Positions 10,562-27,473 of a stretch of 64,000 nucleotides of DNA are shown here, piece by piece. The translations under genes were made by a program, and so were the position numbers. Position 1 is the stretch's first letter; each line of letters starts with the position of its first letter. Source of the DNA: Caldisericota bacterium (lineage in GTDB: Bacteria; Caldisericota; Caldisericia; B22-G15); NCBI GenBank assembly GCA_039793425.1, contig JBAMLT010000192.1:24030-88029 (forward strand), written 5' to 3'. The notes under the pieces are model-generated. The model was not told where the DNA came from. It ran no database searches and saw nothing but the letters and a program-made list of their open reading frames with translations.

Positions 10562-11071
10562 TTATAGCATAATTAAGTTCTTGATTCTTTTTAAAAAAAA
10601 TGATTCAAAAAATCTCTGAATCTTAGTCAAAATAAAATCTTTACTTCTATCTCTTGGTTCAACAAGAATTGTATATAAATTTAAGATATTACCACCTAAA
10701 ATATCAGTAAATATTTGATCTCCAATAAGAATAACTTCATCCTTTTTAACATTTAAAATTTTCATCATTTTTTTAAAAGAATGTGGAAAAGGTTTTAAAG
10801 CATTTTCAATAACTGGAATTTTGTAGTTATTTTCAATAAAATTTAATTTATTTTTTTTATTGTTACTTATAACACCAATTTTAAAATTCTTATATGCTTC
10901 TTTTAACCAATCAGAAACACTTTTTTCTAAAATCTTTTCTCCTCTTTTAATAAGAGTATTATCATGATCAATTATTAATGCTTTGAATTTATTTCTATAT
11001 TTATTTAAATCAATATCTTCAATTTTTTCATAATATTCATCTGGATAAAAAATTTTCTTATGCATTTCCAA
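10562..11071 (-). CDS. yqeG: YqeG-family HAD-IIIA phosphatase
   Basis: DHDNTL aspartate motif and a C-terminal GDQIFTDILGGN motif; about 170 aa. Confidence 0.7.
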   Translation of the reverse strand: MEMHKKIFYPDEYYEKIEDIDLNKYRNKFKALIIDHDNTLIKRGEKILEKSVSDWLKEAYKNFKIGVISNNKKNKLNFIENNYKIPVIENALKPFPHSFKKMMKILNVKKDEVILIGDQIFTDILGGNILNLYTILVEPRDRSKDFILTKIQRFFESFFLKRIKNLIML

Positions 11072-11294
11072 AATTCACTGGTTCATAAATTAACGGAAAA
11101 TATTCAGAAACTTCTTTTAAAAATTTATTAATATCTTTTGAAAATTTATTATCAAAAGAAAGATCCATAATACCAACATTTTCTTCAACAAATGTATAAA
11201 GAATCATTGCTTTCCCTTCAAGGGCTTCTATTAGAGTTTGTAAAAAAACAATCTCTTCTTTTGGAAAATATATCCTCAATACAGATTCACTCAT
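11058..11294 (-). CDS. Small hypothetical protein (78 aa)
   Basis: ORF only, tightly packed between udk and yqeG; no recognisable motif. Confidence 0.3.
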   Translation of the reverse strand: MSESVLRIYFPKEEIVFLQTLIEALEGKAMILYTFVEENVGIMDLSFDNKFSKDINKFLKEVSEYFPLIYEPVNFGNA

Positions 11295-11297
11295 AAA

Positions 11298-11912
11298 TCA
11301 CTCCTTAAATAACTCTCTAACTTTACTAACAACAATATCAACTGCAACAATATTGAATCCTCCTTCAGGAATAATTATATCAGCAAATCTCTTTGTTGGT
11401 TCCACAAATTGAATATGCATTGGTCTTACTACTTCTGTATATTGCTTAATAACAGAATCAAGGGTTCTACCTCTTTCTTTTGTATCTCTTAATATTCTTC
11501 TTATAAGTCTTATATCAGGATCTGTATCAACATAAATCTTTATATCCATTAGATTTCTCAATTCTTCATAAAAAAGAGCAAAAATTCCTTCCAATATTAT
11601 GATTCTTTGAGGTTTAATAATCTCATATTCTTTTAATCTAACATATTCAACAAAAGAATAAATCGGCTTTTTAATTTCCTTTCCATCAATCAAATTTTGG
11701 ATATGTTCTTTTAGTAAAGGTATATCAAAAGCATCTGGATGATCATAGTTTATTTTTAATCTTTCATCAAAAGTTATATTTGAATGATCTTTATAATATG
11801 AATCCATATCAAGAATAAGAATTTCTTCGCCAATTTTTTCTTTTATATTAAGTGCAACTGTTGTCTTTCCAGAACCTGTTCCTCCTGAAATTCCAATTAA
11901 AAATCTTTTCAT
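11298..11912 (-). CDS. udk: Uridine kinase
   Basis: P-loop [12 protein letters not shown], about 204 aa, and the uridine/cytidine kinase family pattern. Confidence 0.85.
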
Positions 11913-12895
11913 GGCATCACCTTTGAAATGTTTCTTAAATGTTCTTCAAATGTTTTTGCAAAAAGATGAGTGCCATCACCTTTTGCAACAAAATATAAAT
12001 ATTCTGTTTTTTCAGGATTAATTGTTGCTTTAATTGATTCTATCCCTGGATTACATATTGGTGTTGGTGGAAGTCCTGGATATTTATAACTATTATAAGG
12101 AGAATCTATTTCAAGTTCTTTAGATGTTAATGTATATCCAGCATCAGGTAATATATATTTTAATGTAGGATCAGCTTGAAGTAACATATTAAGATTTAAT
12201 CTATTTATAAAAACTCCAGCAATTATAGGTCTTTCATTTTTATCTTGTGCTTCTTTTTCAACAATTGAAGCAAGTTTTAGAATATCATATTTATTAAGAT
12301 CTCCACTATAACATTTATATACTTCATTAAATTTTTGAATGAAATTATTTAACATCATTTCAATATTTTTTGTTAAATTTTCCTTTTCAAAAAAATAAGT
12401 GTCGGGATATAAAAATCCCTCAAGAGTATTTGCATCTTCAAAAATATATTTTTTGTATTTATCTATATCTTTAACTTCATCTAAAAATTCCTCTTTTGTA
12501 CATAAATTATTTTTTTCAAAAATTTCAGCAATTTCAGTAAGTTTGAGACCTTCTGGAATTGTAACTTTTATATATGGTGATAAACCTCCTTCAGTAAGTT
12601 TTATAAGAACATCTCTTACATTCATTTTTTCCTCAAATTCATATATTCCAGATTTTAATTTATCTTCAATATCTAAATATTTAGCAAGTAATGAAAAAAT
12701 AATTTTATTTTTTATAATATTTTCATTTTTTAATTTTTCTGCTATCTCTTCTGTTGTCAAATTATCTTTTATATAAACTTCTTTACTTACAAAATCTGAA
12801 GGTGGCTGTGACTCATAGTAAGCATAAAATCCAATTGAAAGAAATAATATAATTAAAATTACAAAAAAAATTAAAAAGATTTTTAAATATTTCAT
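11909..12895 (-). CDS. mltG: Endolytic murein transglycosylase MltG (YceG family)
   Basis: N-terminal TM helix, the conserved ASIVEKEA motif, and the conserved alaS-ruvX-mltG gene order. Confidence 0.85.
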
Positions 12896-15995: not shown

Positions 15996-16658
15996 GTGCT
16001 TGAAAAAATTAAAAATCCCTTAGAAGCATTAAAACTATCTTATTTAAAAGATGGTTCATCATTATTAATTGCTGGATTCCTTGCAAATGGAACAAGTGAG
16101 ATATTGATTGATGCAATTCTTGAATCAGGTGCTAAAAATTTAATGGTGATATGTAACGATACATCCTTTCCAGATAAAGGAATAGGCAAACTAATTAAAA
16201 ATAGGAGAGTTAATAGGATAATAACAACACATATCGGTACCAATATAGAAACTCAAAAACAATATTTGAATAAAGAAATTGAAGTAGAATTTGTACCTCA
16301 GGGAACTTTAATTGAGAGATTGAGGGCTTATGGTGCTGGTCTTGGAGGAATATTAACACCAGTTGGTATTGGTACAGTAGTCGAAGAAGGAAAACAAAAA
16401 ATGGTTATTGATGACAAAGAATATATTCTTGAAGAACCTCTTGGAGGAGATATATCTATAATTAAAGCAAAATGGGGGGATGAATTTGGTAATTTAAAAT
16501 ATTATGGAACTGCAAGAAATTTTAATCCAGTTATGGCTCTTGCAGGTAAAAAGGTTATTGCAGAGGTTGAAAATTTAATGAAAATTGGAGAAATGGATCC
16601 TAATGAGATAGAAACAGCCGGAATTTTTGTTGATTATATTGTCAAGGGAGGAAATTAA
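15996..16658 (+). CDS. atoD: 3-oxoacid/acetoacetate CoA-transferase subunit A
   Basis: AtoD/ScoA family pattern with a GTG start after an AGGGAGG RBS. It lies divergent from the kam operon. Confidence 0.85.
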   Translation: MLEKIKNPLEALKLSYLKDGSSLLIAGFLANGTSEILIDAILESGAKNLMVICNDTSFPDKGIGKLIKNRRVNRIITTHIGTNIETQKQYLNKEIEVEFVPQGTLIERLRAYGAGLGGILTPVGIGTVVEEGKQKMVIDDKEYILEEPLGGDISIIKAKWGDEFGNLKYYGTARNFNPVMALAGKKVIAEVENLMKIGEMDPNEIETAGIFVDYIVKGGN

Positions 16659-16661
16659 AAA

Positions 16662-17309
16662 ATGGAACCAAAAGAAATAATTGCAAAAAGAGTAGCACAA
16701 GAACTTAAAGATGGTGATATCGTAAATCTTGGTTTTGGAATCCCAACTCTTGTTTCAAATTATATTCCTCCAAATATAAATGTCATTTTTCAAGGCGAAA
16801 ATGGAATTTTAGGAATTGGAGAAGTTAATAAAGAAAAGCCAGACTATGAAATAACTAACGCAGGAAATACACCAGTTAAAACTCTTCCTTACTCTTCATT
16901 TTTTGATACATTTTTATCTTTTACAATGATAAGAGGAGGACATTTAGATGTTACTGTTCTTGGTGGAATTCAGGTTGATGAGGAAGGAAATTTGGCTAAT
17001 TGGATTATTCCCGGAAAAATGATAGCAGGAATAGGTGGTGCAATGGATTTAGCAACTGGCTCAAAAAAACTTATTGTTGCAATGGAGCATACTGCAAAAG
17101 GAGAACCTAAAATTGTAAAAAAATGTAGATATCCATTAACTGCGAAAAGAAAAGTAAATTTAATAGTAACTGAACTTGCAGTAATTGAGGTAAATAGTGA
17201 TGGTTTAATGCTAAAAGAAATTAATCCTCAAACTTCTATTGATGAAGTTATTAAAAATACAGAAGCAAAATTAATTATATCTAAAGATTTAAAACTGATG
17301 AATTTATAG
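16662..17309 (+). CDS. atoA: 3-oxoacid/acetoacetate CoA-transferase subunit B
   Basis: AtoA/ScoB family pattern (the catalytic Glu region [12 protein letters not shown]) and pairing with subunit A. Confidence 0.85.
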
Positions 17310-17331: not shown

Positions 17332-18150
17332 TTATTTAGTAATATTTAAAATTTTTCTTACCTCATTTGGTTTTGCTATCTCTCTTCCAAATTCTAAACT
17401 AAATTTCACAATTCTTTCAACAAATTCAGCATTTGATTTTGCGAGAACTCCTTTTTTAATATATATATTATCTTCAAAACCAACCCTTACATTTCCACCT
17501 AATGTAATTGCAATTATACTTAAAGGATATTCATATTTTCCAATTCCAGCAACCATCCATGTTGAATTTGGAGGAATCGAATCAATAAGAAAAATTAAAT
17601 TTTTTGGATCTCCACTCATACCACCTGGAACACCTAATACAAAATCAAAATGAAGTGGCTCTTCTAAAAGACCCTCTTTTAAGAGTTTAAGTGCATTTTC
17701 AATCATTCCTTTTTCAAAAATTTCAATTTCAGGTTTTATTTTTCTTTCTTTCATAATCAATGCGAATTTTTTAATCCAATCAGGAGGATTATAAAAAACT
17801 CCCTCTCCAAAATTTACTGTTCCGAGTGTTAAGGACGCAAACTCTGGATTAAGTTCAAGTGGTTCAGCCCTTTCTTCAAAACTCATTCCAATTGCACCCC
17901 CTGTTGAAATCTGTAATATAATATCTGGAACTTTTTCTCTTATTTTTTCAATAATTTCTTTATATCTTTCCTTTTTTTGAGTTGGATTACCCGCTTCATC
18001 TCTTGCATGAAGATGTATAACTGATGCACCAGAATTGTAACATCTTAAAACTTCTTCAGCAATTTCATTAGGTGTAATTGGAAGATAGGGATTTTCTTTT
18101 TTCGTTACTTCTGCTCCAACTGGAGCAACTGTAATGATTAATTTTTCCAT
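17332..18150 (-). CDS. kce: 3-keto-5-aminohexanoate cleavage enzyme (Kce, BKACE/DUF849 family)
   Basis: BKACE N-terminus (MEKLIITVAPVGAEV..ITP.EIA), about 272 aa, last gene of the kam operon. Confidence 0.85.
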   Translation of the reverse strand: MEKLIITVAPVGAEVTKKENPYLPITPNEIAEEVLRCYNSGASVIHLHARDEAGNPTQKKERYKEIIEKIREKVPDIILQISTGGAIGMSFEERAEPLELNPEFASLTLGTVNFGEGVFYNPPDWIKKFALIMKERKIKPEIEIFEKGMIENALKLLKEGLLEEPLHFDFVLGVPGGMSGDPKNLIFLIDSIPPNSTWMVAGIGKYEYPLSIIAITLGGNVRVGFEDNIYIKKGVLAKSNAEFVERIVKFSLEFGREIAKPNEVRKILNITK

Positions 18151-18153
18151 AAC

Positions 18154-18909
18154 TTAACTCCATTTATCTAATAAATTTCTTTTTATTAATTCATTTACTA
18201 TATAATATGCAACCTGAGATGGATAAGTGTTTGCTCCAAAACCCATATCATATCCAAGTTCATGGGCAAGTTCAGGAGTTATCTTATAACCACCACAAAT
18301 TAAAAGTATCTTGTCTCTTAAATTTTCTGCTTCAAGAAGTTCTGAAAGTAAAGTTAAATTTTTAAGATGAATATTTTTCTGTGTCACTGTTTGTGATATT
18401 AAAACTACATTTGGTTTGTACTCTTGTATCTTTTTTATAAGCAGTTCATGTTGAATTTGTGAGCCTAAATTTAAGATTTCAAAACCCTTATATCTTTCAA
18501 GACCATTATCTCCATTATATCCCTTAGCATTTATAATTGCATCGAGCCCAACAGTATGAGCATCTGATCCTAAAGTGCAAGCAATAATTTTTATTTTTTT
18601 GCCAATTTTCTCTTCCATAATTTTTTCTATTTCAAAAAAATCTGGAATAGTTAATTCATTATTTTTAACTTTTATTTTTGAAATATCAATGTATTTATTA
18701 AATTTTCCATAAATTATGAAAAAAGAAAATCCAGAATAGATATCTTTTTCAAAGACAATATTTTCATCAGAAAGACCCATTTCTTTTACAATTCTTTTGG
18801 CAACCTCTCTTGAAAAAGGTAAAGGAAGTGGAATTGTAAAACTTATTTGTATTATTCCATCATCTGGTGTATCACCATAAGGTCTTATAAATTTTTCTTT
18901 ATCTTTCAT
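18154..18909 (-). CDS. kamE: Lysine 5,6-aminomutase beta subunit (B12-binding)
   Basis: B12-binding DxHxxG motif (GSDAHTVGLDAI); about 250 aa; directly downstream of kamD. Confidence 0.85.
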   Translation of the reverse strand: MKDKEKFIRPYGDTPDDGIIQISFTIPLPLPFSREVAKRIVKEMGLSDENIVFEKDIYSGFSFFIIYGKFNKYIDISKIKVKNNELTIPDFFEIEKIMEEKIGKKIKIIACTLGSDAHTVGLDAIINAKGYNGDNGLERYKGFEILNLGSQIQHELLIKKIQEYKPNVVLISQTVTQKNIHLKNLTLLSELLEAENLRDKILLICGGYKITPELAHELGYDMGFGANTYPSQVAYYIVNELIKRNLLDKWS

Positions 18910-18921
18910 AATGACTCCTTT

Positions 18922-20496
18922 TCATAATAAGTCATATATTTCTAAATAATCATCATCTTTTTTTATTACACCTTCATATCCTCTTCCTTCTTCTTTAAGC
19001 CTTTTAGTATCTGAAAAGTACCCCTTTTCTAATGCTTTAAAAAGTCCCATAGAGGATATTTCCTCGAGTTTTTCAACCGCTTTATCAAAAACCTCAACTG
19101 CTCTTTTCTTTATAATTCCATCGTCTTTGATGATAAATTCATTAGAAATTGATTTTAAATTATTTCTAATATATTTTGCATTTTCAATTGAAAGATATCT
19201 ATCATGAACTAAAGGAGTATGAAGAGCTTCAGTTAACATTCCTAAAAGTTGAATTTCCTGATCTGTAAGATTTGCAACTATATTGAAAAGTGTATCCATA
19301 ACATGGGATAAGAAAATATTTCCAGTTTTATATCTTGTTGGAGGCATAAATTTTATTGGTGAATTTGGAAAAAGTTCTCTTACAAGTTGTGCTTGCGCTA
19401 TTTCATATAAAAATCCATTCTCTAAGTTTGGATCAAGTTCAAATGCATGACCAAGACCTATTTCATTCTCATCCATTCCACAATTTTTTGCAAGTTGTTC
19501 ATTAATTATTTGAGAAACTATTACAGTATAATAGAATTCTTTTGAGTCAATAGTTTTTATTAAATTATCTTCACCTGTTACTATAGGAATACCTCCAATA
19601 TGTAGAATAAACCTTGAAAATCTCTGATCAATCATAGTTCTTAATGGATTTAGGTTTCGGAATAAAATTCCATAAAGTGCATCATTAACCATCAAATCTA
19701 ACCTTTCTAAAGTAGCAAGTGTTGATATTTCAGGCATACATAAACCTGATGAATAATTAACAAGTTTCACATATTTTTTTATATCTTTACTTACTTCATC
19801 AAGTATTTCTCTTATGAATCTAAAATTTTCTTGAGTTGCATAAGTACCACCATAACCCTCTGTTGTTAAACCATAAGGTACATAGTCAAGAAGTGATTGG
19901 GCTGTACTTCTAATAATAGCAATAAAATCAGCACCAAGATATGCAGCAGATTTAACTTGCTTTGCATCTTCATAAATATTTCCAGTTGCAACTATAACAT
20001 ATAAATGTGGTTTTTCTTTAAGAGGGTATTTTAATATCATATTTTCTCTTTCTTTTTTCTTTTTTACTATTTTTGAAACTCCATCTTTAATTAAATCTTT
20101 AGCTAAAATTTTAATTTTTTCTTTATCACCATATTCTAATTTTGTTATATTTATTTTATCTTCATCAATTTCTTCAATTAATCTTTGAATTGAATTAGTA
20201 TTAAATTTTATTAAAGCATTTGAAATTAAAAAAAGAATACCTTTTGAAATTAAATTTTTTTCTTGAAACTTATCTATAATTGAATTTACATATGGTATTC
20301 CTTTTGAATTAACTCCATTTACTCCAAAAATTCTTAAAATTGCCCTCTCAATTGATTTTGTTGTATAAGGCTTTATCTCCTCTAAAACATCATCAGCAAT
20401 TTTTTTCCCCAAACTTTTTGCATAAATAATTTTTCTTTCATCAAGTGATAAGGTTCCTATTTTCATATTACTCTCCACTTTTTTCCATAACATCAA
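18922..20496 (-). CDS. kamD: Lysine 5,6-aminomutase alpha subunit (PLP-binding TIM barrel)
   Basis: About 520 aa, the expected size, and adjacent to kamE. Confidence 0.8.
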   Translation of the reverse strand: MMLWKKVESNMKIGTLSLDERKIIYAKSLGKKIADDVLEEIKPYTTKSIERAILRIFGVNGVNSKGIPYVNSIIDKFQEKNLISKGILFLISNALIKFNTNSIQRLIEEIDEDKINITKLEYGDKEKIKILAKDLIKDGVSKIVKKKKERENMILKYPLKEKPHLYVIVATGNIYEDAKQVKSAAYLGADFIAIIRSTAQSLLDYVPYGLTTEGYGGTYATQENFRFIREILDEVSKDIKKYVKLVNYSSGLCMPEISTLATLERLDLMVNDALYGILFRNLNPLRTMIDQRFSRFILHIGGIPIVTGEDNLIKTIDSKEFYYTVIVSQIINEQLAKNCGMDENEIGLGHAFELDPNLENGFLYEIAQAQLVRELFPNSPIKFMPPTRYKTGNIFLSHVMDTLFNIVANLTDQEIQLLGMLTEALHTPLVHDRYLSIENAKYIRNNLKSISNEFIIKDDGIIKKRAVEVFDKAVEKLEEISSMGLFKALEKGYFSDTKRLKEEGRGYEGVIKKDDDYLEIYDLL

Positions 20497-21490
20497 AAAT
20501 AATTATAGGTTTTATAAGTTCTTTTAACTTATTAAATAAAATTTTCCCATCATCTTTATTAAAATAATTATCTTGGTTAAAGGTTGAAAATGAAACACCT
20601 ATCAATTTTACTTCTTTTAATGTAAAAAATTTAATACCTGAGTTTATCATTTCTCTATAAATTTCTCTATTTAAAAAAACTTTTGTTGGATGTTCTACTA
20701 TTATATTTATATTTTTTTTGTCTTTTAAATAACCAAAAAATTCAGAAGTAAATGCACCTTTGACAAATATATTATTATAATCTTTATTTAAAATTTGATC
20801 GCTTTCTTCTAGATAGTTATTTTTTATGAATAAATATTTTTTTTCAGGATAATTTTTTAAAATTTTTTCCTTTAAATCTCCCTCAATCTTTTTAATTGTA
20901 AACACATCTTTATAATAAATTGTTTCTTCAATAATTTCATTAATATTTTCGCCAATATTCAAACCAGTTTGTAAAATTACACCATCTGAAAAAAATGTTC
21001 CAATTTTTCTATCAACTGCTCCATCTATTAAAATTAAATCTATATTATAATTTCTTGCATCATCTAAAATTTTTTTTAAATCTTTCAAAATCATGGGTCC
21101 AGAAATTTCTATATAACCATCTTCCATTAATTTGATTAAATATAGTTCACCAAGTGGTGTAAAAATATCAAATTTTCTTATTATTTCAAATTTTATATTA
21201 ATTTTATCTAAAGAACTCTTTGATGTAACAATTAAATTTCCTTTATAGCCTTTTATTAATGGTTTTTCAAAATAATAAAGTGAATCAAATTTTTCTCCAT
21301 CAAGCCCTATTGATGTAACAAAAATATTGAGATTATTTTTCTTTGCTTCCTCAATCAATTCAATTAAGGTAGTTGTTTTCCCGCAATTTTTACTTAAGCC
21401 AAAAATTGAAAGAATTTTTATATTATTATTAATGATTAGAGGAATTATTTCCATTTCTTCTTTTAATTCTCTGAGATTCAACAGGTTCAA
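20468..21490 (-). CDS. P-loop NTPase of unknown function embedded between kamA and kamD (candidate aminomutase accessory/reactivation factor)
   Basis: Walker A-like GLSKNCGKTTTL near the N-terminus and a Walker B-like LILIDGAVD. No further family recognisable by eye. It overlaps both neighbours, which suggests translational coupling. Confidence 0.4.
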   Translation of the reverse strand: MNLLNLRELKEEMEIIPLIINNNIKILSIFGLSKNCGKTTTLIELIEEAKKNNLNIFVTSIGLDGEKFDSLYYFEKPLIKGYKGNLIVTSKSSLDKINIKFEIIRKFDIFTPLGELYLIKLMEDGYIEISGPMILKDLKKILDDARNYNIDLILIDGAVDRKIGTFFSDGVILQTGLNIGENINEIIEETIYYKDVFTIKKIEGDLKEKILKNYPEKKYLFIKNNYLEESDQILNKDYNNIFVKGAFTSEFFGYLKDKKNINIIVEHPTKVFLNREIYREMINSGIKFFTLKEVKLIGVSFSTFNQDNYFNKDDGKILFNKLKELIKPIIIFDVMEKSGE

Positions 21491-22703
21491 TTAATAATCT
21501 TTTTCCAGAAAGCATTGAGGCAGGACCGTCTTTACTTTCAAGGAATGGTTCTTTTTCACATAAATCGCAATTTTTTGGACAATTTGATATTTTATCAATT
21601 GGTTCTGTATATGAAAAAATACCACCTTCATAATTTCTTAATATAACTTTTCTATCAGACATTGAAATTAAATAATTTGGAAAAACAGGAATTTTTCCAC
21701 CTCCAAGAGTATCAATTATATATGTTGGCACTTTGAAACCTGATATATGTCCTCTAAGATTTTCAATTATTTCTATCCCTTTTGCAACAGATGTCCTGAA
21801 ATGTGAAATACCTTGAGATAGATCACATTGATATATATAATATGGTCTTACTCTTATTTTTACAAGTTCATTTACAAGTTTTTTCTGAATAATTGGACAA
21901 TCATTTATTCCTTTTAATAAAACAGTTTGATTACCAACAGGAATACCAGCATCAACAAGTTTTAAAATGGCTTTTTTACTTTCCTCAGTTATTTCTTTAT
22001 AATGATTAAATTGAGTATTTAACCAAATTGGATGATATTTTTTTAACATCTCAACAAGGTTATCAGTTATTCTCATTGGCAAAGTGCATGGTGCTCTTGT
22101 GCCTATTCTTATAACATCAATATGAGGAATTTTTCGAAGTTCTCTAATAATGAATTCAAGTTTATCGTCACCAACAAGTAGGGCATCTCCTCCTGAAAGC
22201 AAAACATCATTAATCTCGGGATGTTCTTTTATATATTCTATACCTGAAATTAGTTCTTCTTTTGTCCTTGACATATCTCTCTCACCTGCTAATCTTCTTC
22301 TTGTACAATGTCTACAATACATACCACATTGATCTGTTATTAAAAAAAGAACCCTATCTGGATATCTATGTGTAAGGCCTTTAACTGGGGAGTCGACCTC
22401 TTCATACAATGGGTCATAGATATCTTCTTCTTTTATTTCAAGTTCTTTAATGGTTGGTATTGCCTGTTTCCTTATTGGATCATCTGGATCATCTTTATCC
22501 ATTAGTGTTATCCAGTATGGTGTGATTGCCATTCTCAATTTTCTTAAAGAACTCTTTACACCTTCTTCTTCAACTTGACTAAGATTGATAACTTTTTTAA
22601 GAGTTTCGAGGTCCATTATTCTGTTTCTTAATTGCCATTTCCAGTCATTCCAATCTTTTTCTTCGACATCTTTCCAAATTTCTATCTCTCTATAATCCCT
22701 CAT
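21429..22703 (-). CDS. kamA: L-lysine 2,3-aminomutase (radical SAM)
   Basis: CxxxCxxC motif (CGMYCRHCTRRR); PLP-lysine and zinc-Cys regions; about 420 aa. Confidence 0.9.
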   Translation of the reverse strand: MRDYREIEIWKDVEEKDWNDWKWQLRNRIMDLETLKKVINLSQVEEEGVKSSLRKLRMAITPYWITLMDKDDPDDPIRKQAIPTIKELEIKEEDIYDPLYEEVDSPVKGLTHRYPDRVLFLITDQCGMYCRHCTRRRLAGERDMSRTKEELISGIEYIKEHPEINDVLLSGGDALLVGDDKLEFIIRELRKIPHIDVIRIGTRAPCTLPMRITDNLVEMLKKYHPIWLNTQFNHYKEITEESKKAILKLVDAGIPVGNQTVLLKGINDCPIIQKKLVNELVKIRVRPYYIYQCDLSQGISHFRTSVAKGIEIIENLRGHISGFKVPTYIIDTLGGGKIPVFPNYLISMSDRKVILRNYEGGIFSYTEPIDKISNCPKNCDLCEKEPFLESKDGPASMLSGKRLLIEPVESQRIKRRNGNNSSNH

Positions 22704-23746
22704 TTATCACCTCCAAAATATTCTTCAAAAAACTCTCTTAACTTATCTGATTCCCTCAATAAATTTAAGGTATATTCTGCATGATTTTTTGCATAACCAT
22801 TTCCAATTAGCATATCAACATCTTTGCCAATTCCTTCTGCCCCAAGAGCTGCTTTTGTAAAAGAAGTTGCCATACTGAAAAAATATACAACACCTCTATC
22901 CTTACATGTCAAAATAGATGTCAATTCTGTATCAGGAACATTAACACAGTTAACAACAACATCAGCCAGTTTTCCTTCTGTTATTCTCTCAATCTCATCT
23001 AAAACTGAAGTTGGATTTTGGGCATCTCCCATAAAAAGATGATCATAAAATTCGAGTCTTTTTAATCTTTCATAGGATTTTTTTGAATGAGCCATTGCAA
23101 TAACTTTTCCTTTTGGACCTACTCTTTTCTTGCTTTCATAGCAAGATAAAATCCCTGATTTACCGCCTGCTCCTATAACGAAAACATAATCATTGGGTTT
23201 AACAATTCTTGCTACCTGTATTGGTGCTCCTGCAACATCAAGAACTGATAATGAAGTTTTTAAATTTATATCTTCAGGTAATTTGACAAAAATCCCACTT
23301 TCAAAAAGAATCGCTTTTCCTTCTATCTCAACCTGATCTTTATCCAAATAAATCTCTTTAATTTTATTTATTTTTAAAGGTGTTAAAGAAAGAGAAACAA
23401 GAGAAGCAATTTTATCTTTCTCTTTTAGATCTATTTTATCTTTCAAATCATCTCCAATTTTTTCAACAACACCAACAAGCATTCCACCTGAACCAGTTAC
23501 AGGATTATGCATTTTCCCTCTATTGTTCACAATTTTTAATATTATTTCTTCTATCTTCTTTTTATCTTTATTTGCTTCATTTTTTATTTGAGTGAATGAT
23601 GAAGAATCAATATTTAAGAACAATACATCAATAAGGATTTCATTTGAATATAATTTTGAGAAATCATTATCAAGTTTAAAAGCAGGTTGAGGTAAGTAGC
23701 CTTTTGGTTCGATTACTCTGTGAATACCATATTTATCTCCCTTCAT
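22700..23746 (-). CDS. kdd: L-erythro-3,5-diaminohexanoate dehydrogenase
   Basis: About 348 aa, Rossmann motif VFVIGAGGKSG, and a position immediately upstream of kamA with an ATGA start/stop overlap. Confidence 0.7.
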   Translation of the reverse strand: MKGDKYGIHRVIEPKGYLPQPAFKLDNDFSKLYSNEILIDVLFLNIDSSSFTQIKNEANKDKKKIEEIILKIVNNRGKMHNPVTGSGGMLVGVVEKIGDDLKDKIDLKEKDKIASLVSLSLTPLKINKIKEIYLDKDQVEIEGKAILFESGIFVKLPEDINLKTSLSVLDVAGAPIQVARIVKPNDYVFVIGAGGKSGILSCYESKKRVGPKGKVIAMAHSKKSYERLKRLEFYDHLFMGDAQNPTSVLDEIERITEGKLADVVVNCVNVPDTELTSILTCKDRGVVYFFSMATSFTKAALGAEGIGKDVDMLIGNGYAKNHAEYTLNLLRESDKLREFFEEYFGGDK

Positions 23747-23763
23747 TTCTTCATTCTCCTTCC

Positions 23764-25038
23764 TTAGATTTTATATTTTTTAATTTTATATTGAAGAGTC
23801 TGTCTTGGAATTTTTAAAAGTTTTCCTGCTTTTGAGATATTAAAATTGGTAAGATATAAAACTTTTTTTATTATTTTCTTTTCAAATTCCAATGTCTCTT
23901 TTGAAAGATCAAATTCTTTAAAATATATTGAACTTGGAAGATCTGATTTTGTTATCTTTGAATTTTTGCTATTTAAATATGAATATTCAAGAATATAAAA
24001 TAGTTCTCTAACATTTCCAGGAAAGGAATAAGATAGAAGAAATTCTTTAAAACTATCATCATAAATTTTATTTAAACCATATTTCTTTTCAAGTTCATCA
24101 AAATAATAATTTAATAATAAAATGATATCTTCTTTTCTTTCTCTTAATGGATTTATAATAAACTCAATTTTTGAGATTAAAAAGAAAAGTTCTTTCTTTA
24201 ATTTTCCACTATTTATTGCAAAAATTGGCAAATTTTCGATTGATGTTATTAGTTTAAAGTTAAGTTCTTTTGATTCAAGAAAATAAAGAAACTTGTCCTG
24301 TAATCTTAATGGCATTTTATCTATATTCGCAATATAAAGAGTAGAACCTTCTGAAATTTTAAGTAATCCGAAAATTGTGTCCTCAAGGATCGATTCTTCT
24401 GTATTATCACAATCTTGGTAAAGGAAATCTTTTTCTTTTCTATCAGAGGTAAAATGTATAATTTCTGCTAATAATCTTTTTCCAACCCCGCTTTCGCCAA
24501 TTAATAAAACTGGAGTGTTAAGATTTTTAAAATTTTCTATCTCTTTTAATTGCTTCTTTAAATTCTCATCATTGGTTTTAAAATCAGATATATCTCTTTT
24601 TAATATTTGAGTTTCCTTTTGTTTTTTATTTTTACTTTGTAATTCTATAATGGTTTCTGATAATTTCTTGATTTCTGTAATATCTCTTGATAACTCAATT
24701 GCACCAATTAATTCTCCTCTATAAAAAAGAGGGAAAGTGTTATTTAATGTCGTTACTTCTTTACCTTTATATGTTAAAAAAACTTGAAGTTTATTTAATA
24801 TTGGTTCCTTCGTTTTTAGAACCTTAAGTAAAGTTGATGTTTCATACGTAAGAGATGGAAAAATTTCAAGAATGCTTTTTCCAATAACTTCATCCTCATT
24901 TAAACCTTCAAGTTTTGAATTGGCTTTATTATAGAAAAGAGTTACACCATCTTTATCAATTATATGAATACCAATATCCACATAATTTAATAAAATATCA
25001 ATTAATGACTCCCATGGAAAATATTTTATTTTCTCCAT
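23764..25038 (-). CDS. PAS-domain transcriptional regulator with a sigma-54-activator-like AAA core (degenerate, no GAFTGA) and a C-terminal Fis-type HTH
   Basis: N-terminal PAS domain. Walker A GESGVGKRLLAEIIH, but Walker B and GAFTGA are missing. C-terminal HTH KAGKLLKIPRQTLQYKIKKY. It sits 17 nt upstream of kdd. Confidence 0.7.
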   Translation of the reverse strand: MEKIKYFPWESLIDILLNYVDIGIHIIDKDGVTLFYNKANSKLEGLNEDEVIGKSILEIFPSLTYETSTLLKVLKTKEPILNKLQVFLTYKGKEVTTLNNTFPLFYRGELIGAIELSRDITEIKKLSETIIELQSKNKKQKETQILKRDISDFKTNDENLKKQLKEIENFKNLNTPVLLIGESGVGKRLLAEIIHFTSDRKEKDFLYQDCDNTEESILEDTIFGLLKISEGSTLYIANIDKMPLRLQDKFLYFLESKELNFKLITSIENLPIFAINSGKLKKELFFLISKIEFIINPLRERKEDIILLLNYYFDELEKKYGLNKIYDDSFKEFLLSYSFPGNVRELFYILEYSYLNSKNSKITKSDLPSSIYFKEFDLSKETLEFEKKIIKKVLYLTNFNISKAGKLLKIPRQTLQYKIKKYKI

Positions 25039-25103
25039 GGCAAAATTATAACATAATTTTAAAATAATAAAATTGCCTAAAAATTAGCAAAGTTTAAAAA
25101 AAA

Positions 25104-26459
25104 TTAAATTTCTATGCTTCTTGAAGCCTCATCTATCGATTCATCAAGTATCTCAACAATTCTTTTTATATCTTCATCTTCAATAACAAGTGGGGGTGCT
25201 ATATAAGTTTTATCAACAGATGCTCTACAAAGATATAAACCTCTTCTATAGGCTGCCTCTTCTACTCTCATAGCAAATCTGATATTTGATGGTATCCTCT
25301 CTTTGGTTTCTTTATTTTTCACATATTCAATTGCCCAATGAAGTCCAATACCTCTAATATCTCCGACTCTCTTATGCTTATATAATTCTTTCAATAATTT
25401 TGCTAATATTTCTCCTTTTTCTTTTGCTTTTAAATATAATTTTTCATCTTCAATCAATTCAATATTTTTTAAAGCAGCAACGGTTGATAAACAATGTCCT
25501 CCAAATGTATGACCATGAACAAACATATTTTCTATAAAAACATTAGAAAGTTCTTCTTTAACAATCATAGCTCCAAGAGGAGCATATCCAGAAGTTATAC
25601 CCTTTCCAAAAATCATAATATCAGGGTCGAGATTGAAAATGTTTGAAGCAAATAAATCCCCACATCTACCCCAGGCATTTATTACCTCATCAGCAATTAT
25701 CAGTATTTGATTTTCTTTTGCGATTTCTTGAATTACTTCAAAATATTTTTTTGGGGGCACAAGAGCACCAGCGGCACTCATAACTGGTTCCATTATTATT
25801 GCTGCGATTGTTCTTGCACCTTCATAGTGAATTAAATCTTTAATCTGTTTGGCGCATTCAGCATTACATGTTGATGGATCTTTCCCAAAATCACATCTAT
25901 AGCAATAAGGAGGTGAAACATGAAGAAAGAAAGGTAATAGTGGTTCAAAAGGTTGTCTATAGATTCTTAAACCTGTTGCTGAAAGTGCGCCGTATGTAAC
26001 TCCATGATAGGATTCTCTTCTTGAAATTATTTTCTTTTTTTCTGGTATTCCTTTAATTGCCCAATATTGTCTTACAAATTTTATTGCTGATTCAACTGCT
26101 TCAGAACCTCCTGAAATGAAAAAGGAAGTTTTGAAACTTGACGGAGTTATTTTTGCGAGTTTATCAGCAAGTTTTATAGCAGGTTCATTGAAATAGCCTC
26201 CAAATAGACTTGCATAATTAATTTTATCGAGTTGTTCTTTCAATGCGTCTATTATTTCTTTTCTACCATGACCAATATTAACTGTCCAAAGAATTGATAA
26301 ACCATCAATATATTCTTTCCCGTCTATATCAAATATTTTTGCTCCTTTACCTTCAACAATAATCTTTGGACTCTTCTCTCTTATTTCTTTAATAAATGCA
26401 TAATGAGGAAGTACATTGCTTTCTGCAATTTTAATTAACTCATCTTTATTCATAATCAC
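25104..26459 (-). CDS. Class-III (fold-type I) PLP aminotransferase; candidate 3-aminobutyryl-CoA aminotransferase (Kat) of the lysine pathway
   Basis: About 451 aa with class-III aminotransferase patterning (GSEAVE, the HGHTF..G region, PLP-Lys region FGKGITSGYAPLGA). It lies immediately upstream of the lysine-fermentation regulator and operon. Confidence 0.8.
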   Translation of the reverse strand: MIMNKDELIKIAESNVLPHYAFIKEIREKSPKIIVEGKGAKIFDIDGKEYIDGLSILWTVNIGHGRKEIIDALKEQLDKINYASLFGGYFNEPAIKLADKLAKITPSSFKTSFFISGGSEAVESAIKFVRQYWAIKGIPEKKKIISRRESYHGVTYGALSATGLRIYRQPFEPLLPFFLHVSPPYCYRCDFGKDPSTCNAECAKQIKDLIHYEGARTIAAIIMEPVMSAAGALVPPKKYFEVIQEIAKENQILIIADEVINAWGRCGDLFASNIFNLDPDIMIFGKGITSGYAPLGAMIVKEELSNVFIENMFVHGHTFGGHCLSTVAALKNIELIEDEKLYLKAKEKGEILAKLLKELYKHKRVGDIRGIGLHWAIEYVKNKETKERIPSNIRFAMRVEEAAYRRGLYLCRASVDKTYIAPPLVIEDEDIKRIVEILDESIDEASRSIEI

Positions 26460-26462
26460 CTC

Positions 26463-27473
26463 CTAATTTTTTTTGAATATAAAAGGATTCTTGTTTATTT
26501 CAAGAGAACTTACTGCATCTATTTCAAAAATGTTTGACTCATAACCTCTTTTAAAATATTCTTCACCAACAAGAGCAATCATCCCACCATTATCAGTTGA
26601 AAAATCAAAAGATGGAAAGTAAAATTCAAAATCCTTTTCATTTAAAAAAGTTTTTCTTAAAAATTTACTTGCAGAAACACCCCCAACAACTGATACCTTA
26701 TTTATTCCTGTTTTTTCATAAACTTTCTTTATATTTTTAATCAAAGATTCATATATTGAAAAAAACAAAGAAGCTATTAAATTTTCGAGATTAAAATCAC
26801 CTTTTTTAATAATATTTAATACTTCTGTTTTGATACCAGAAAATGAAAAATTATACTCCTTTTCTTTCTCCTTAAATCTTGGAGTCGGAAATTTATAATA
26901 TGAAGGATCTCCTTCAATAGCAAGTTTATCAAGTTCAGATCCAGCAGGATATTGAAAACCTAATTTTCTGCCTATTTTATCTATTATCTCACCACATGCA
27001 TCATCAACTGTCTCACCTAAAATTTTATATTTAAGGTGATCTTCAAAAATTATTAGAATCGTATGACCTCCTGAAATAATTAGGGTTTGAAAAGGAAATT
27101 CTATTTTATTATCAAAAAAAATAGAATAAATATGCCCTTCAAGATGATTTATTCCTACCAATGGCTTTTTTAAAGAATATGCAAGTGTTCTTGCTACTTC
27201 AACTCCAACAAGAAGTGATCCAACAAGACCTGGACCAATGGTTACTGAAAACCCATCTAAATCTTTTAAATTAATATTAAGTTTATCAATTAGATCCTCT
27301 AAAATAAAAGTAAATATTTCGAGTTGTTTTCTTGCAGCAATTTCAGGAACAATACCACCAAATTTTTTATGAAATTCTTCAGATGTAGTTCTAACCATAG
27401 ATAAACATTTCCCATTTTCAACAATACCCATTGAAGTATCATCACAAGAAGTTTCAATTCCTAATATTTTCAT
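26463..27473 (-). CDS. tsaD: tRNA N6-adenosine threonylcarbamoyltransferase TsaD
   Basis: N-terminus MKILGIETSCDDTS and the HxxGH metal motif (NHLEGHIY); about 336 aa. Confidence 0.9.
   Translation of the reverse strand: MKILGIETSCDDTSMGIVENGKCLSMVRTTSEEFHKKFGGIVPEIAARKQLEIFTFILEDLIDKLNINLKDLDGFSVTIGPGLVGSLLVGVEVARTLAYSLKKPLVGINHLEGHIYSIFFDNKIEFPFQTLIISGGHTILIIFEDHLKYKILGETVDDACGEIIDKIGRKLGFQYPAGSELDKLAIEGDPSYYKFPTPRFKEKEKEYNFSFSGIKTEVLNIIKKGDFNLENLIASLFFSIYESLIKNIKKVYEKTGINKVSVVGGVSASKFLRKTFLNEKDFEFYFPSFDFSTDNGGMIALVGEEYFKRGYESNIFEIDAVSSLEINKNPFIFKKN

Follow-up and report, generated by a model that had tools for sequence, protein, structure and literature searches.

Lysine 5,6-aminomutase (5,6-LAM) is a textbook radical enzyme that depends on adenosylcobalamin (AdoCbl) and pyridoxal phosphate (PLP), and its self-inactivation during turnover restricts mechanistic studies as well as application of the enzyme in β-amino acid synthesis. 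In its native form, the enzyme combines a core, E1 (KamDE), with E2, a sulfhydryl protein of about 80 kDa that has an auxiliary role (PMC3958899, PMC9081730). Reviews that cite work from 1970–73 credit E2 with ATP-dependent activation and reactivation of 5,6-LAM (PMC3958899, PMC9081730). ATP is an allosteric activator of the native enzyme only in the presence of E2, and recombinant KamDE alone shows no ATP regulation (PMC3958899, PMC9081730); an E2 preparation also showed “AdoCbl synthetase” activity (PMC3958899). The activity called E2 was recognized fifty years ago, yet the open literature contains, as far as we found, no study of its gene product. Here, we describe a candidate, kamB, in a 64,000-nt stretch of Caldisericia DNA (hereafter the window, to which all coordinates refer), where the gene lies between kamA, for the radical S-adenosylmethionine (SAM) enzyme lysine 2,3-aminomutase, and kamD.

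Genes of this kind have been drawn before. In a 2011 paper, the legend to Figure 2 names “HP” and “mutS family” genes in lysine-fermentation clusters, and the Fusobacterium nucleatum pathway genes are listed as FN1869–FN1866 and FN1863–FN1862, with FN1865 and FN1864 unlisted in the gap (PMC3149608). By locus-tag numbering, and with the flanking tags presumed to be kamA and kamD, the F. nucleatum KamB is probably FN1865 or FN1864.

An initial annotation of the window had singled out a 340-residue open reading frame (ORF) between kamA and kamD as a P-loop NTPase that might reactivate the aminomutases or load their cofactor, and had held that no such factor was assigned to these enzymes. The frame is present (20468..21490, minus strand), and its product matches the NCBIfam equivalog NF052386, “lysine 5,6-aminomutase reactivase subunit KamB”, with 239.8 bits (E 3.7e-71; cutoff 210). 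The match spans profile positions 1–326 of 326, equivalent to residues 27–334 of the 340-residue frame. Far from being unassigned, the gene therefore falls in a family with an established name, KamB, and should be annotated as KamB instead of “hypothetical protein”, the label under which it is mis-annotated in the source metagenome-assembled genomes (MAGs); this correction is the main outcome of the analysis. The suggested ATP-dependent reactivase or cofactor-chaperone role is the one that the curated equivalog gives to the family, at the level of annotation. The functional idea was right in substance, but it was not new: E2 is described in reviews (PMC3958899, PMC9081730), KamB and KamC are named by NCBIfam and RefSeq, and the genes had been drawn in 2011 (PMC3149608).

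The window protein is a divergent member of its family, with 28–35% identity to Bacillota orthologues; against NF052386, the orthologues from Sedimentibacter and Aminicella lysinilytica reach about 395 bits, and the name KamB is already in use for some RefSeq and UniRef entries of Aminicella and Ihubacter orthologues. When 1.84 billion representative proteins were searched with a profile, 2,325 members were recovered at E ≤ 1e-3 and 1,285 at E ≤ 1e-30. No fusion proteins were present among the best 150 matches, all of which were stand-alone proteins of 295–375 residues. No Pfam family matched the window protein at E ≤ 0.01, and at E ≤ 1 only P-loop matches below their gathering thresholds appeared (MobB, DUF1611, YqeC and CbiA). 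A sequence profile search of the PDB gave nothing significant, the single listed match being SRP54 (3dm5; E 0.73).

The genomic context of kamB was compared by scanning one genome per species, which yielded at least 527 KamB relatives. The best 80 loci, ranked with a 10-sequence profile, were fetched, and their ORFs were called and searched with the window's own pathway proteins within a neighborhood of 10 kb. In 65 of the 80 loci, kamB adjoins kamD/kamE, and most of the others end at contig ends. The prevailing order, found in 66 loci that all belong to Bacillota lineages or unclassified Bacillota-type MAGs, is kdd-kamA-kamB-X-kamD-kamE, often followed by CoA-transferase genes. Since no Caldisericia were among the best 80, two Caldisericia loci (L081 and L082) and one from a Thorarchaeota MAG (L083) were added by exact-protein look-up; the gene order of the window is repeated in the Caldisericia relative, whose KamB is 47% identical, and in the Thorarchaeota MAG. 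The linkage between KamB and KamDE thus holds across bacteria and Asgard archaea, and the co-occurrence check that had been suggested for the gene was passed decisively.

The sole exception on long-enough contigs is a Bacteroidales locus (RUG182; L072:9558-11540), in which kamB is isolated, with a gene for a four-helix-bundle “23S rRNA intervening sequence protein” on either side. In its product, residue 116 is Ile and the motif DGAxDR reads DGALSR; the copy may be decaying or repurposed.

The same loci distinguish between the two aminomutases as partners of KamB. In 64 of the 80 loci, as in the window, kamA lies directly upstream of kamB. Seven Solirubrobacterales loci (L044, L054–L056, L068, L075 and L076), however, have the order kamD-kamE-kamB, with kdd and kce missing nearby and kamA missing from the surrounding 10 kb; the short Desulfobacterales contig L060 reads kamD-kamE-kce-kamB-kdd. 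No locus on a long-enough contig has kamA-kamB without kamDE. Because kamDE-kamB occurs without kamA, KamB tracks the B12 enzyme KamDE and not the radical-SAM enzyme KamA. In naming the aminomutases in general as clients, the initial annotation was therefore too broad. The Solirubrobacterales loci also suggest that the 5,6-aminomutase is put to another physiological use there. In one of them (L044), the next gene (10738-12636) encodes a homologue of class II Asp/Lys/Asn-type tRNA synthetases that is extended at its N terminus by about 190 residues.

Conservation was assessed in 85 aligned family members from at least five phyla, with residues numbered on the 328-residue form of the window protein (see below). 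The family motifs GxxKNxGKT, TSxGxDGExxD and DGAxDR are all present in the window KamB and are invariant or nearly so in the 85 members. The Walker A- and Walker B-like motifs noted previously are thus real, with key residues conserved far beyond chance. Since the nucleotide-binding residues are invariant in 85 of 85 members, NTP binding is under selection, and, as judged from the alignment, KamB is a conserved P-loop protein selected for nucleotide binding; the gene was rightly described as a conserved P-loop NTPase gene embedded in a lysine aminomutase operon. These residues are equally invariant in KamB proteins with and without a linked KamC. The same is true of T47, S48, G50, D52, G53, E54 and D57, which are invariant or nearly so in both groups and form a candidate switch-I or Mg2+ region. 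The β-rich insert that begins here (residues ≈50–120) is rich in invariant residues (D52, G53, E54, D57, K64, P65, T99, G102, G113, G119 and P120). There is no conserved cysteine in the alignment, and other members have T, A or V where the window protein has C24 in its P-loop.

An AlphaFold2 model calculated from a 32-sequence alignment was confident, with a predicted local distance difference test score (pLDDT) of 89 and a predicted template modeling score (pTM) of 0.87. Its structural relatives include the CapB tyrosine kinase, a DUF1611 protein, FlhF, ParA/MinD, SRP54/FtsY and NifH, as well as a hydrogenase maturation Mrp/MinD homologue (3vx3) and the iron–sulfur (Fe–S) assembly factor Cfd1. 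These relatives agree with the sub-threshold Pfam signals for MobB (in 13 of 32 members), DUF1611, YqeC and CbiA. In the spacing of its G-x5-GKT motif and in its hhhhDGA Walker B, KamB resembles the BioD/CobQ branch, a likeness that is a lead and not a test.

We consider it probable, at roughly 0.6, that KamB is an accessory NTPase of the AdoCbl- and PLP-dependent KamDE and the gene-level counterpart of all or part of the classical E2. This reading is favored because of the equivalog match, the synteny with kamDE, the tracking of KamDE over KamA, the invariant nucleotide-binding residues, the precedent of E2, and the cobalamin-binding DxHxxG motif, which the kamE translation carries as DAHTVG, so that a B12-dependent client is encoded directly downstream. 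We infer that KamB is, or is part of, E2; the calculated mass of a KamB homodimer, roughly 75 kDa, is suggestively near the reported size of E2.

As a protein of the SIMIBI class, KamB would probably form a nucleotide-dependent dimer, as is typical of that class. It may bind KamDE that has been inactivated by loss of the adenosyl radical and still holds the damaged cobalamin tightly. Binding and hydrolysis of ATP (or GTP) by KamB would then open the B12-binding KamE domain and free the dead cofactor, after which intact AdoCbl could rebind KamDE. In Bacillota, KamB would work with the MutS-like ABC ATPase KamC, whereas in this Caldisericia operon it would apparently do so without KamC. Packed closely between kamA upstream and kamD downstream, kamB would be expressed in roughly stoichiometric amounts with its client.

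Several points weigh against this assignment. Neither E2 nor ATP is required for activity of recombinant KamDE (PMC3958899), and the factor is therefore dispensable for basal catalysis. NCBIfam gives the label “ATPase” to KamC, not to KamB, and KamC is absent from the window. The C-terminal domain of KamB offers no functional clue. We found no papers in the searchable literature that tested a KamB or KamC gene product, and the basis of the NCBIfam name KamB could not be traced.

Among the alternatives, the one that survives best, although we consider it unlikely, is that KamB is a cofactor-regenerating enzyme, an enzyme-bound adenosyltransferase or “AdoCbl synthetase” that re-adenosylates reduced cobalamin on or near KamDE; the synthetase activity of the E2 preparation (PMC3958899) argues for it. 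Marginally less probable is a purely allosteric role, in which KamB would be a nucleotide-sensing regulatory subunit that ties KamDE activity to cellular ATP with no exchange of cofactor. This would account for the restriction of ATP activation to the native, E2-containing enzyme (PMC3958899, PMC9081730), but the reviews credit E2 with reactivation as well (PMC9081730), and the invariant Walker B aspartate and the D-R pair that follows it suggest hydrolysis beyond mere binding.

A third possibility is that KamB serves KamA, for example in Fe–S cluster delivery or repair like the Mrp/NBP35-type SIMIBI ATPases. The position of kamA directly upstream of kamB and the structural similarity to 3vx3 and Cfd1 are compatible with such a role. 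However, the variable C24 and the lack of any conserved cysteine, the seven Solirubrobacterales loci, the kamDE-kce-kamB-kdd arrangement of L060, and the failure to find kamA-kamB without kamDE on long-enough contigs all make it highly improbable, and a role as an Fe–S carrier for KamA was rejected, since KamB lacks a conserved cysteine and occurs with kamDE where kamA is absent. Least probable of all, a stray housekeeping P-loop protein such as a MobB-type molybdenum cofactor GTPase, present in the operon by chance, might be suspected from the weak MobB matches and from one homologue labeled “molybdopterin-guanine dinucleotide biosynthesis protein” by JGI, but KamB does not belong to MobB (PF03205; 14.8 bits versus a gathering threshold of 26.6, over P-loop residues 14–44 only), passes the KamB equivalog cutoff, and shares synteny with kamDE across bacterial phyla and Asgard archaea, by which a stray MobB is effectively refuted.

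The main difference between the window and the Bacillota-type loci is the absence of protein X, a 530–590-residue protein between kamB and kamD that matches NF052383, “lysine 5,6-aminomutase reactivase ATPase KamC”, with about 577 bits and has weaker similarity to MutS/MutS2. In the window, kamB abuts kamD directly. An NCBIfam scan of the nine large non-operon ORFs found no KamC, and a tblastn search of the whole 64 kb with five KamC proteins gave a best E of 0.011 over 50 residues; KamC is thus not encoded together with KamB in the window. Likewise, 11 of the 80 fetched loci and the three looked-up loci have no KamC within 10 kb, and none of these is from Bacillota; among them are the Caldisericia (L081/L082), Thorarchaeota (L083) and archaeal loci (L038 and L065), the Solirubrobacterales and the Desulfobacterales. 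In these data, KamC is seen only in Bacillota. The absence applies to the 64-kb window and to 10 kb around the other loci and not to whole genomes, in which a distant KamC is possible.

The archaeal MAGs L038 and L065 (one labeled Promethearchaeota, the other an uncultured archaeon) and L083 (labeled Thorarchaeota) carry kdd, kamA and kamB. L083 holds kce, kdd, kamA, kamB, kamD and kamE, and L038 extends to the start of kamD. The kam genes of all three look bacterial-type and lack KamC.

The presence or absence of KamC is mirrored at residue 116 of KamB (window positions 21107-21109, minus strand). In an alignment of 88 sequences, this residue is Glu in 18 of 19 KamC-less and Gln in 63 of 66 KamC-linked proteins; the window has Glu. 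The difference may simply reflect phylogeny, or it could mark a functional hand-over to KamC.

As far as we found, the KamC-less arrangement outside Bacillota has not been described in the literature, and it is the only element of this locus with some novelty. On this basis, KamB would be the minimal rescue factor and probably also the ancestral one. On a broader and more tentative view, which we hold to be possible but more likely wrong than right, KamB and not KamC would be the ancient universal partner of lysine 5,6-aminomutase, and a self-sufficient reactivase in Caldisericia, Asgard archaea, Solirubrobacterales and Desulfobacterales, with KamC a later add-on. KamB would then add a third structural type to the rescue factors of B12 enzymes, namely a SIMIBI NTPase that is BioD/MobB-like and has a C-terminal domain of a novel kind, distinct from the ASKHA (DdrA/EutA) and G3E (MeaB) types, and the switch from Glu116 to Gln116 might mark the hand-over of hydrolytic competence to KamC. 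Since KamB is kept beside KamDE even without KamC, KamB alone, from a thermophile-related lineage, is a simple candidate for reactivation in vitro.

The positions of kamB, its motifs and the neighboring genes are collected in the table. The longest form of the kamB frame in the ORF list starts at a TTG (21490) that has no ribosome-binding site. The likely start is the ATG at 21454, 12 codons further in, which gives a product of 328 residues (coding sequence 20468..21454). The exact 328-residue sequence is already public, from a 96.8-kb NCBI contig, and the closest relatives are also 328 residues long; those that carry a name are “hypothetical protein” entries from Caldisericia MAGs.

Table. 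Positions of kamB, its conserved motifs and the neighboring genes in the window.
Feature	Position	Strand	Evidence or remarks
kamB, predicted NTPase that serves lysine 5,6-aminomutase as an accessory/reactivase subunit	20468..21454	-	NF052386, 239.8 bits (cutoff 210); AlphaFold pLDDT 89
Walker A/P-loop, GLSKNCGKT (G19-L-S-K22-N23-C-G25-K26-T27)	21374..21400	-	G19, K22, N23, K26 and T27 invariant in 85 members
Motif T47-S-I-G-L-D52-G-E54-x-x-D57, just past β2 at the start of the β-rich insert	21284..21316	-	
Walker B and following motif, LILIDGAVDR (D144, D148, R149)	21008..21037	-	D144, G145, A146 and R149 invariant; D148 in ≥95%
C-terminal α/β domain of KamB, residues ≈186–328	20471..20899	-	No clear fold relative
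kamD, proposed KamB client	18922..20466	-	NF052384, 710.9 bits (cutoff 600); Pfam Lys-AminoMut_A
kamE, proposed KamB client	18154..18909	-	NF052385, 309.9 bits (cutoff 280); Pfam B12-binding and OAM_dimer
kce	17332..18150	-	NF052387, 414.3 bits (cutoff 382)
kamA, lysine 2,3-aminomutase (radical SAM)	21429..22703	-	TIGR03820, 595.6 bits (cutoff 525.4); Pfam LAM_C and Radical_SAM
kdd, L-erythro-3,5-diaminohexanoate dehydrogenase	22700..23746	-	NF052381, 261.3 bits (cutoff 200)
PAS-domain sigma54-dependent activator, directly upstream of the operon	23764..25038	-	Pfam Sigma54_activat, AAA_lid_14, HTH_8 and PAS_4
Class III aminotransferase, upstream of the sigma54 activator	25104..26459	-	
Two-subunit CoA-transferase, divergent from the operon	15996..17309		Pfam CoA_trans, assigned via the syntenic pair in L081

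The initial annotation had kamB overlapping both of its neighbors and very likely co-translated with them. The overlap with kamA stands: from the ATG start, kamB covers the last 26 nt of kamA, whose stop codon is at 21429..21431. At the other end, the 29 nt shared with kamD are probably artefactual, since they depend on the longest possible kamD frame (TTG 20496). The kamB stop codon (TAA, 20468..20470) is followed one base on by an ATG at 20466 (TAAtATG), from which the kamD product begins MKIGTLSL. Because a GGAG lies 7–8 nt upstream of this ATG, within kamB, and because the Pfam Lys-AminoMut_A match starts only at residue 16 of the long kamD frame, kamD most likely starts at ATG 20466. The spacing between kamB and kamD is equally tight (2 nt) in the Caldisericia relative. 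Translational coupling across kamA, kamB and kamD is plausible, given how tightly the three genes are packed.

On the minus strand, the genes run in the order sigma54 activator, kdd, kamA, kamB, kamD, kamE and kce, an operon for lysine fermentation. The products of kdd, kamA, kamD, kamE and kce each score above the cutoff of a curated NCBIfam equivalog. A gene with the same Pfam domains as the sigma54 activator occupies the same position in the Caldisericia locus L081, and enhancer-binding-protein-like genes lie upstream of the operon in many Bacillota loci too; the best NCBIfam match of the activator is PrdR, far below the cutoff of that model. A search for a sigma54 −24/−12 promoter (TGGCAY-N5-TTGCW, one mismatch allowed) found none in or near the operon (22700-26500), and the total number of matches was not above chance, so the promoter is either divergent or placed elsewhere than expected. 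No terminator-like sites above chance were found inside the operon, although the scan for sigma70 promoters and terminators was uninformative in this AT-rich DNA.

Locus L081 of Caldisericia has the class III aminotransferase gene at the same position, and in L083 the Thorarchaeota cluster is likewise flanked by Aminotran_3 genes. No gene of the operon was assigned as 3-aminobutyryl-CoA ammonia-lyase (kal). An alternative route of lysine fermentation employs a β-transaminase, Kat (PMC3149608). The aminotransferase together with the lack of an assigned kal fits the Kat route, although no NCBIfam model confirmed the aminotransferase as Kat in the NCBIfam scan.

Compared with known systems, the window protein is most like the NF052386 KamB family itself, with which it shares a full-length match, a size of about 330 residues, the invariant motifs and the position beside kamDE, and from which it differs in its lower score (239.8 versus about 395 bits for Bacillota members), the lack of KamC and the presence of Glu116. 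The order of KamB and then KamC in the 66 Bacillota-type loci agrees with the published cluster drawing (PMC3149608); the window shares with this system the client operon and the KamB component, but has no KamC gene between kamB and kamD. The BioD, CobQ-CobB, MobB and DUF1611 P-loop domains are more distant, with 12–20% identity over about 157 of the 328 KamB residues. KamB does not belong to the dethiobiotin synthetase/CobQ-CobB type (Pfam CbiA and relatives), DUF1611 is also sub-threshold, and none of the genomic contexts of BioD, CobQ or MobB is seen around the window kamB.

KamB has no sequence relationship to MeaB/MMAA/ArgK, the G3E-type GTPase chaperone of AdoCbl-dependent methylmalonyl-CoA mutase. 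It matches none of the Pfam or NCBIfam G3E (ArgK/MeaB) models, lacks the conserved guanine-specificity motif NKxD, and has a different, β-rich insert and an extra C-terminal domain; moreover, MeaB uses GTP, whereas the classical 5,6-LAM factor E2 uses ATP. Nor is KamB a member of the ASKHA B12 reactivases (DdrA/GdrA, EutA and MutL), which have an actin/Hsp70-like fold. Nevertheless, the job proposed for KamB, to free a suicide-inactivated AdoCbl enzyme of its damaged cobalamin in an ATP-dependent manner, is that of DdrAB/GdrAB, EutA and MutL (Toraya and Mori 1999, cited in PMC9081730). The role of KamB would thus resemble those of MeaB on methylmalonyl-CoA mutase and of DdrAB and EutA on the eliminases, and the protein offers a comparison with two other known kinds of B12 chaperone.

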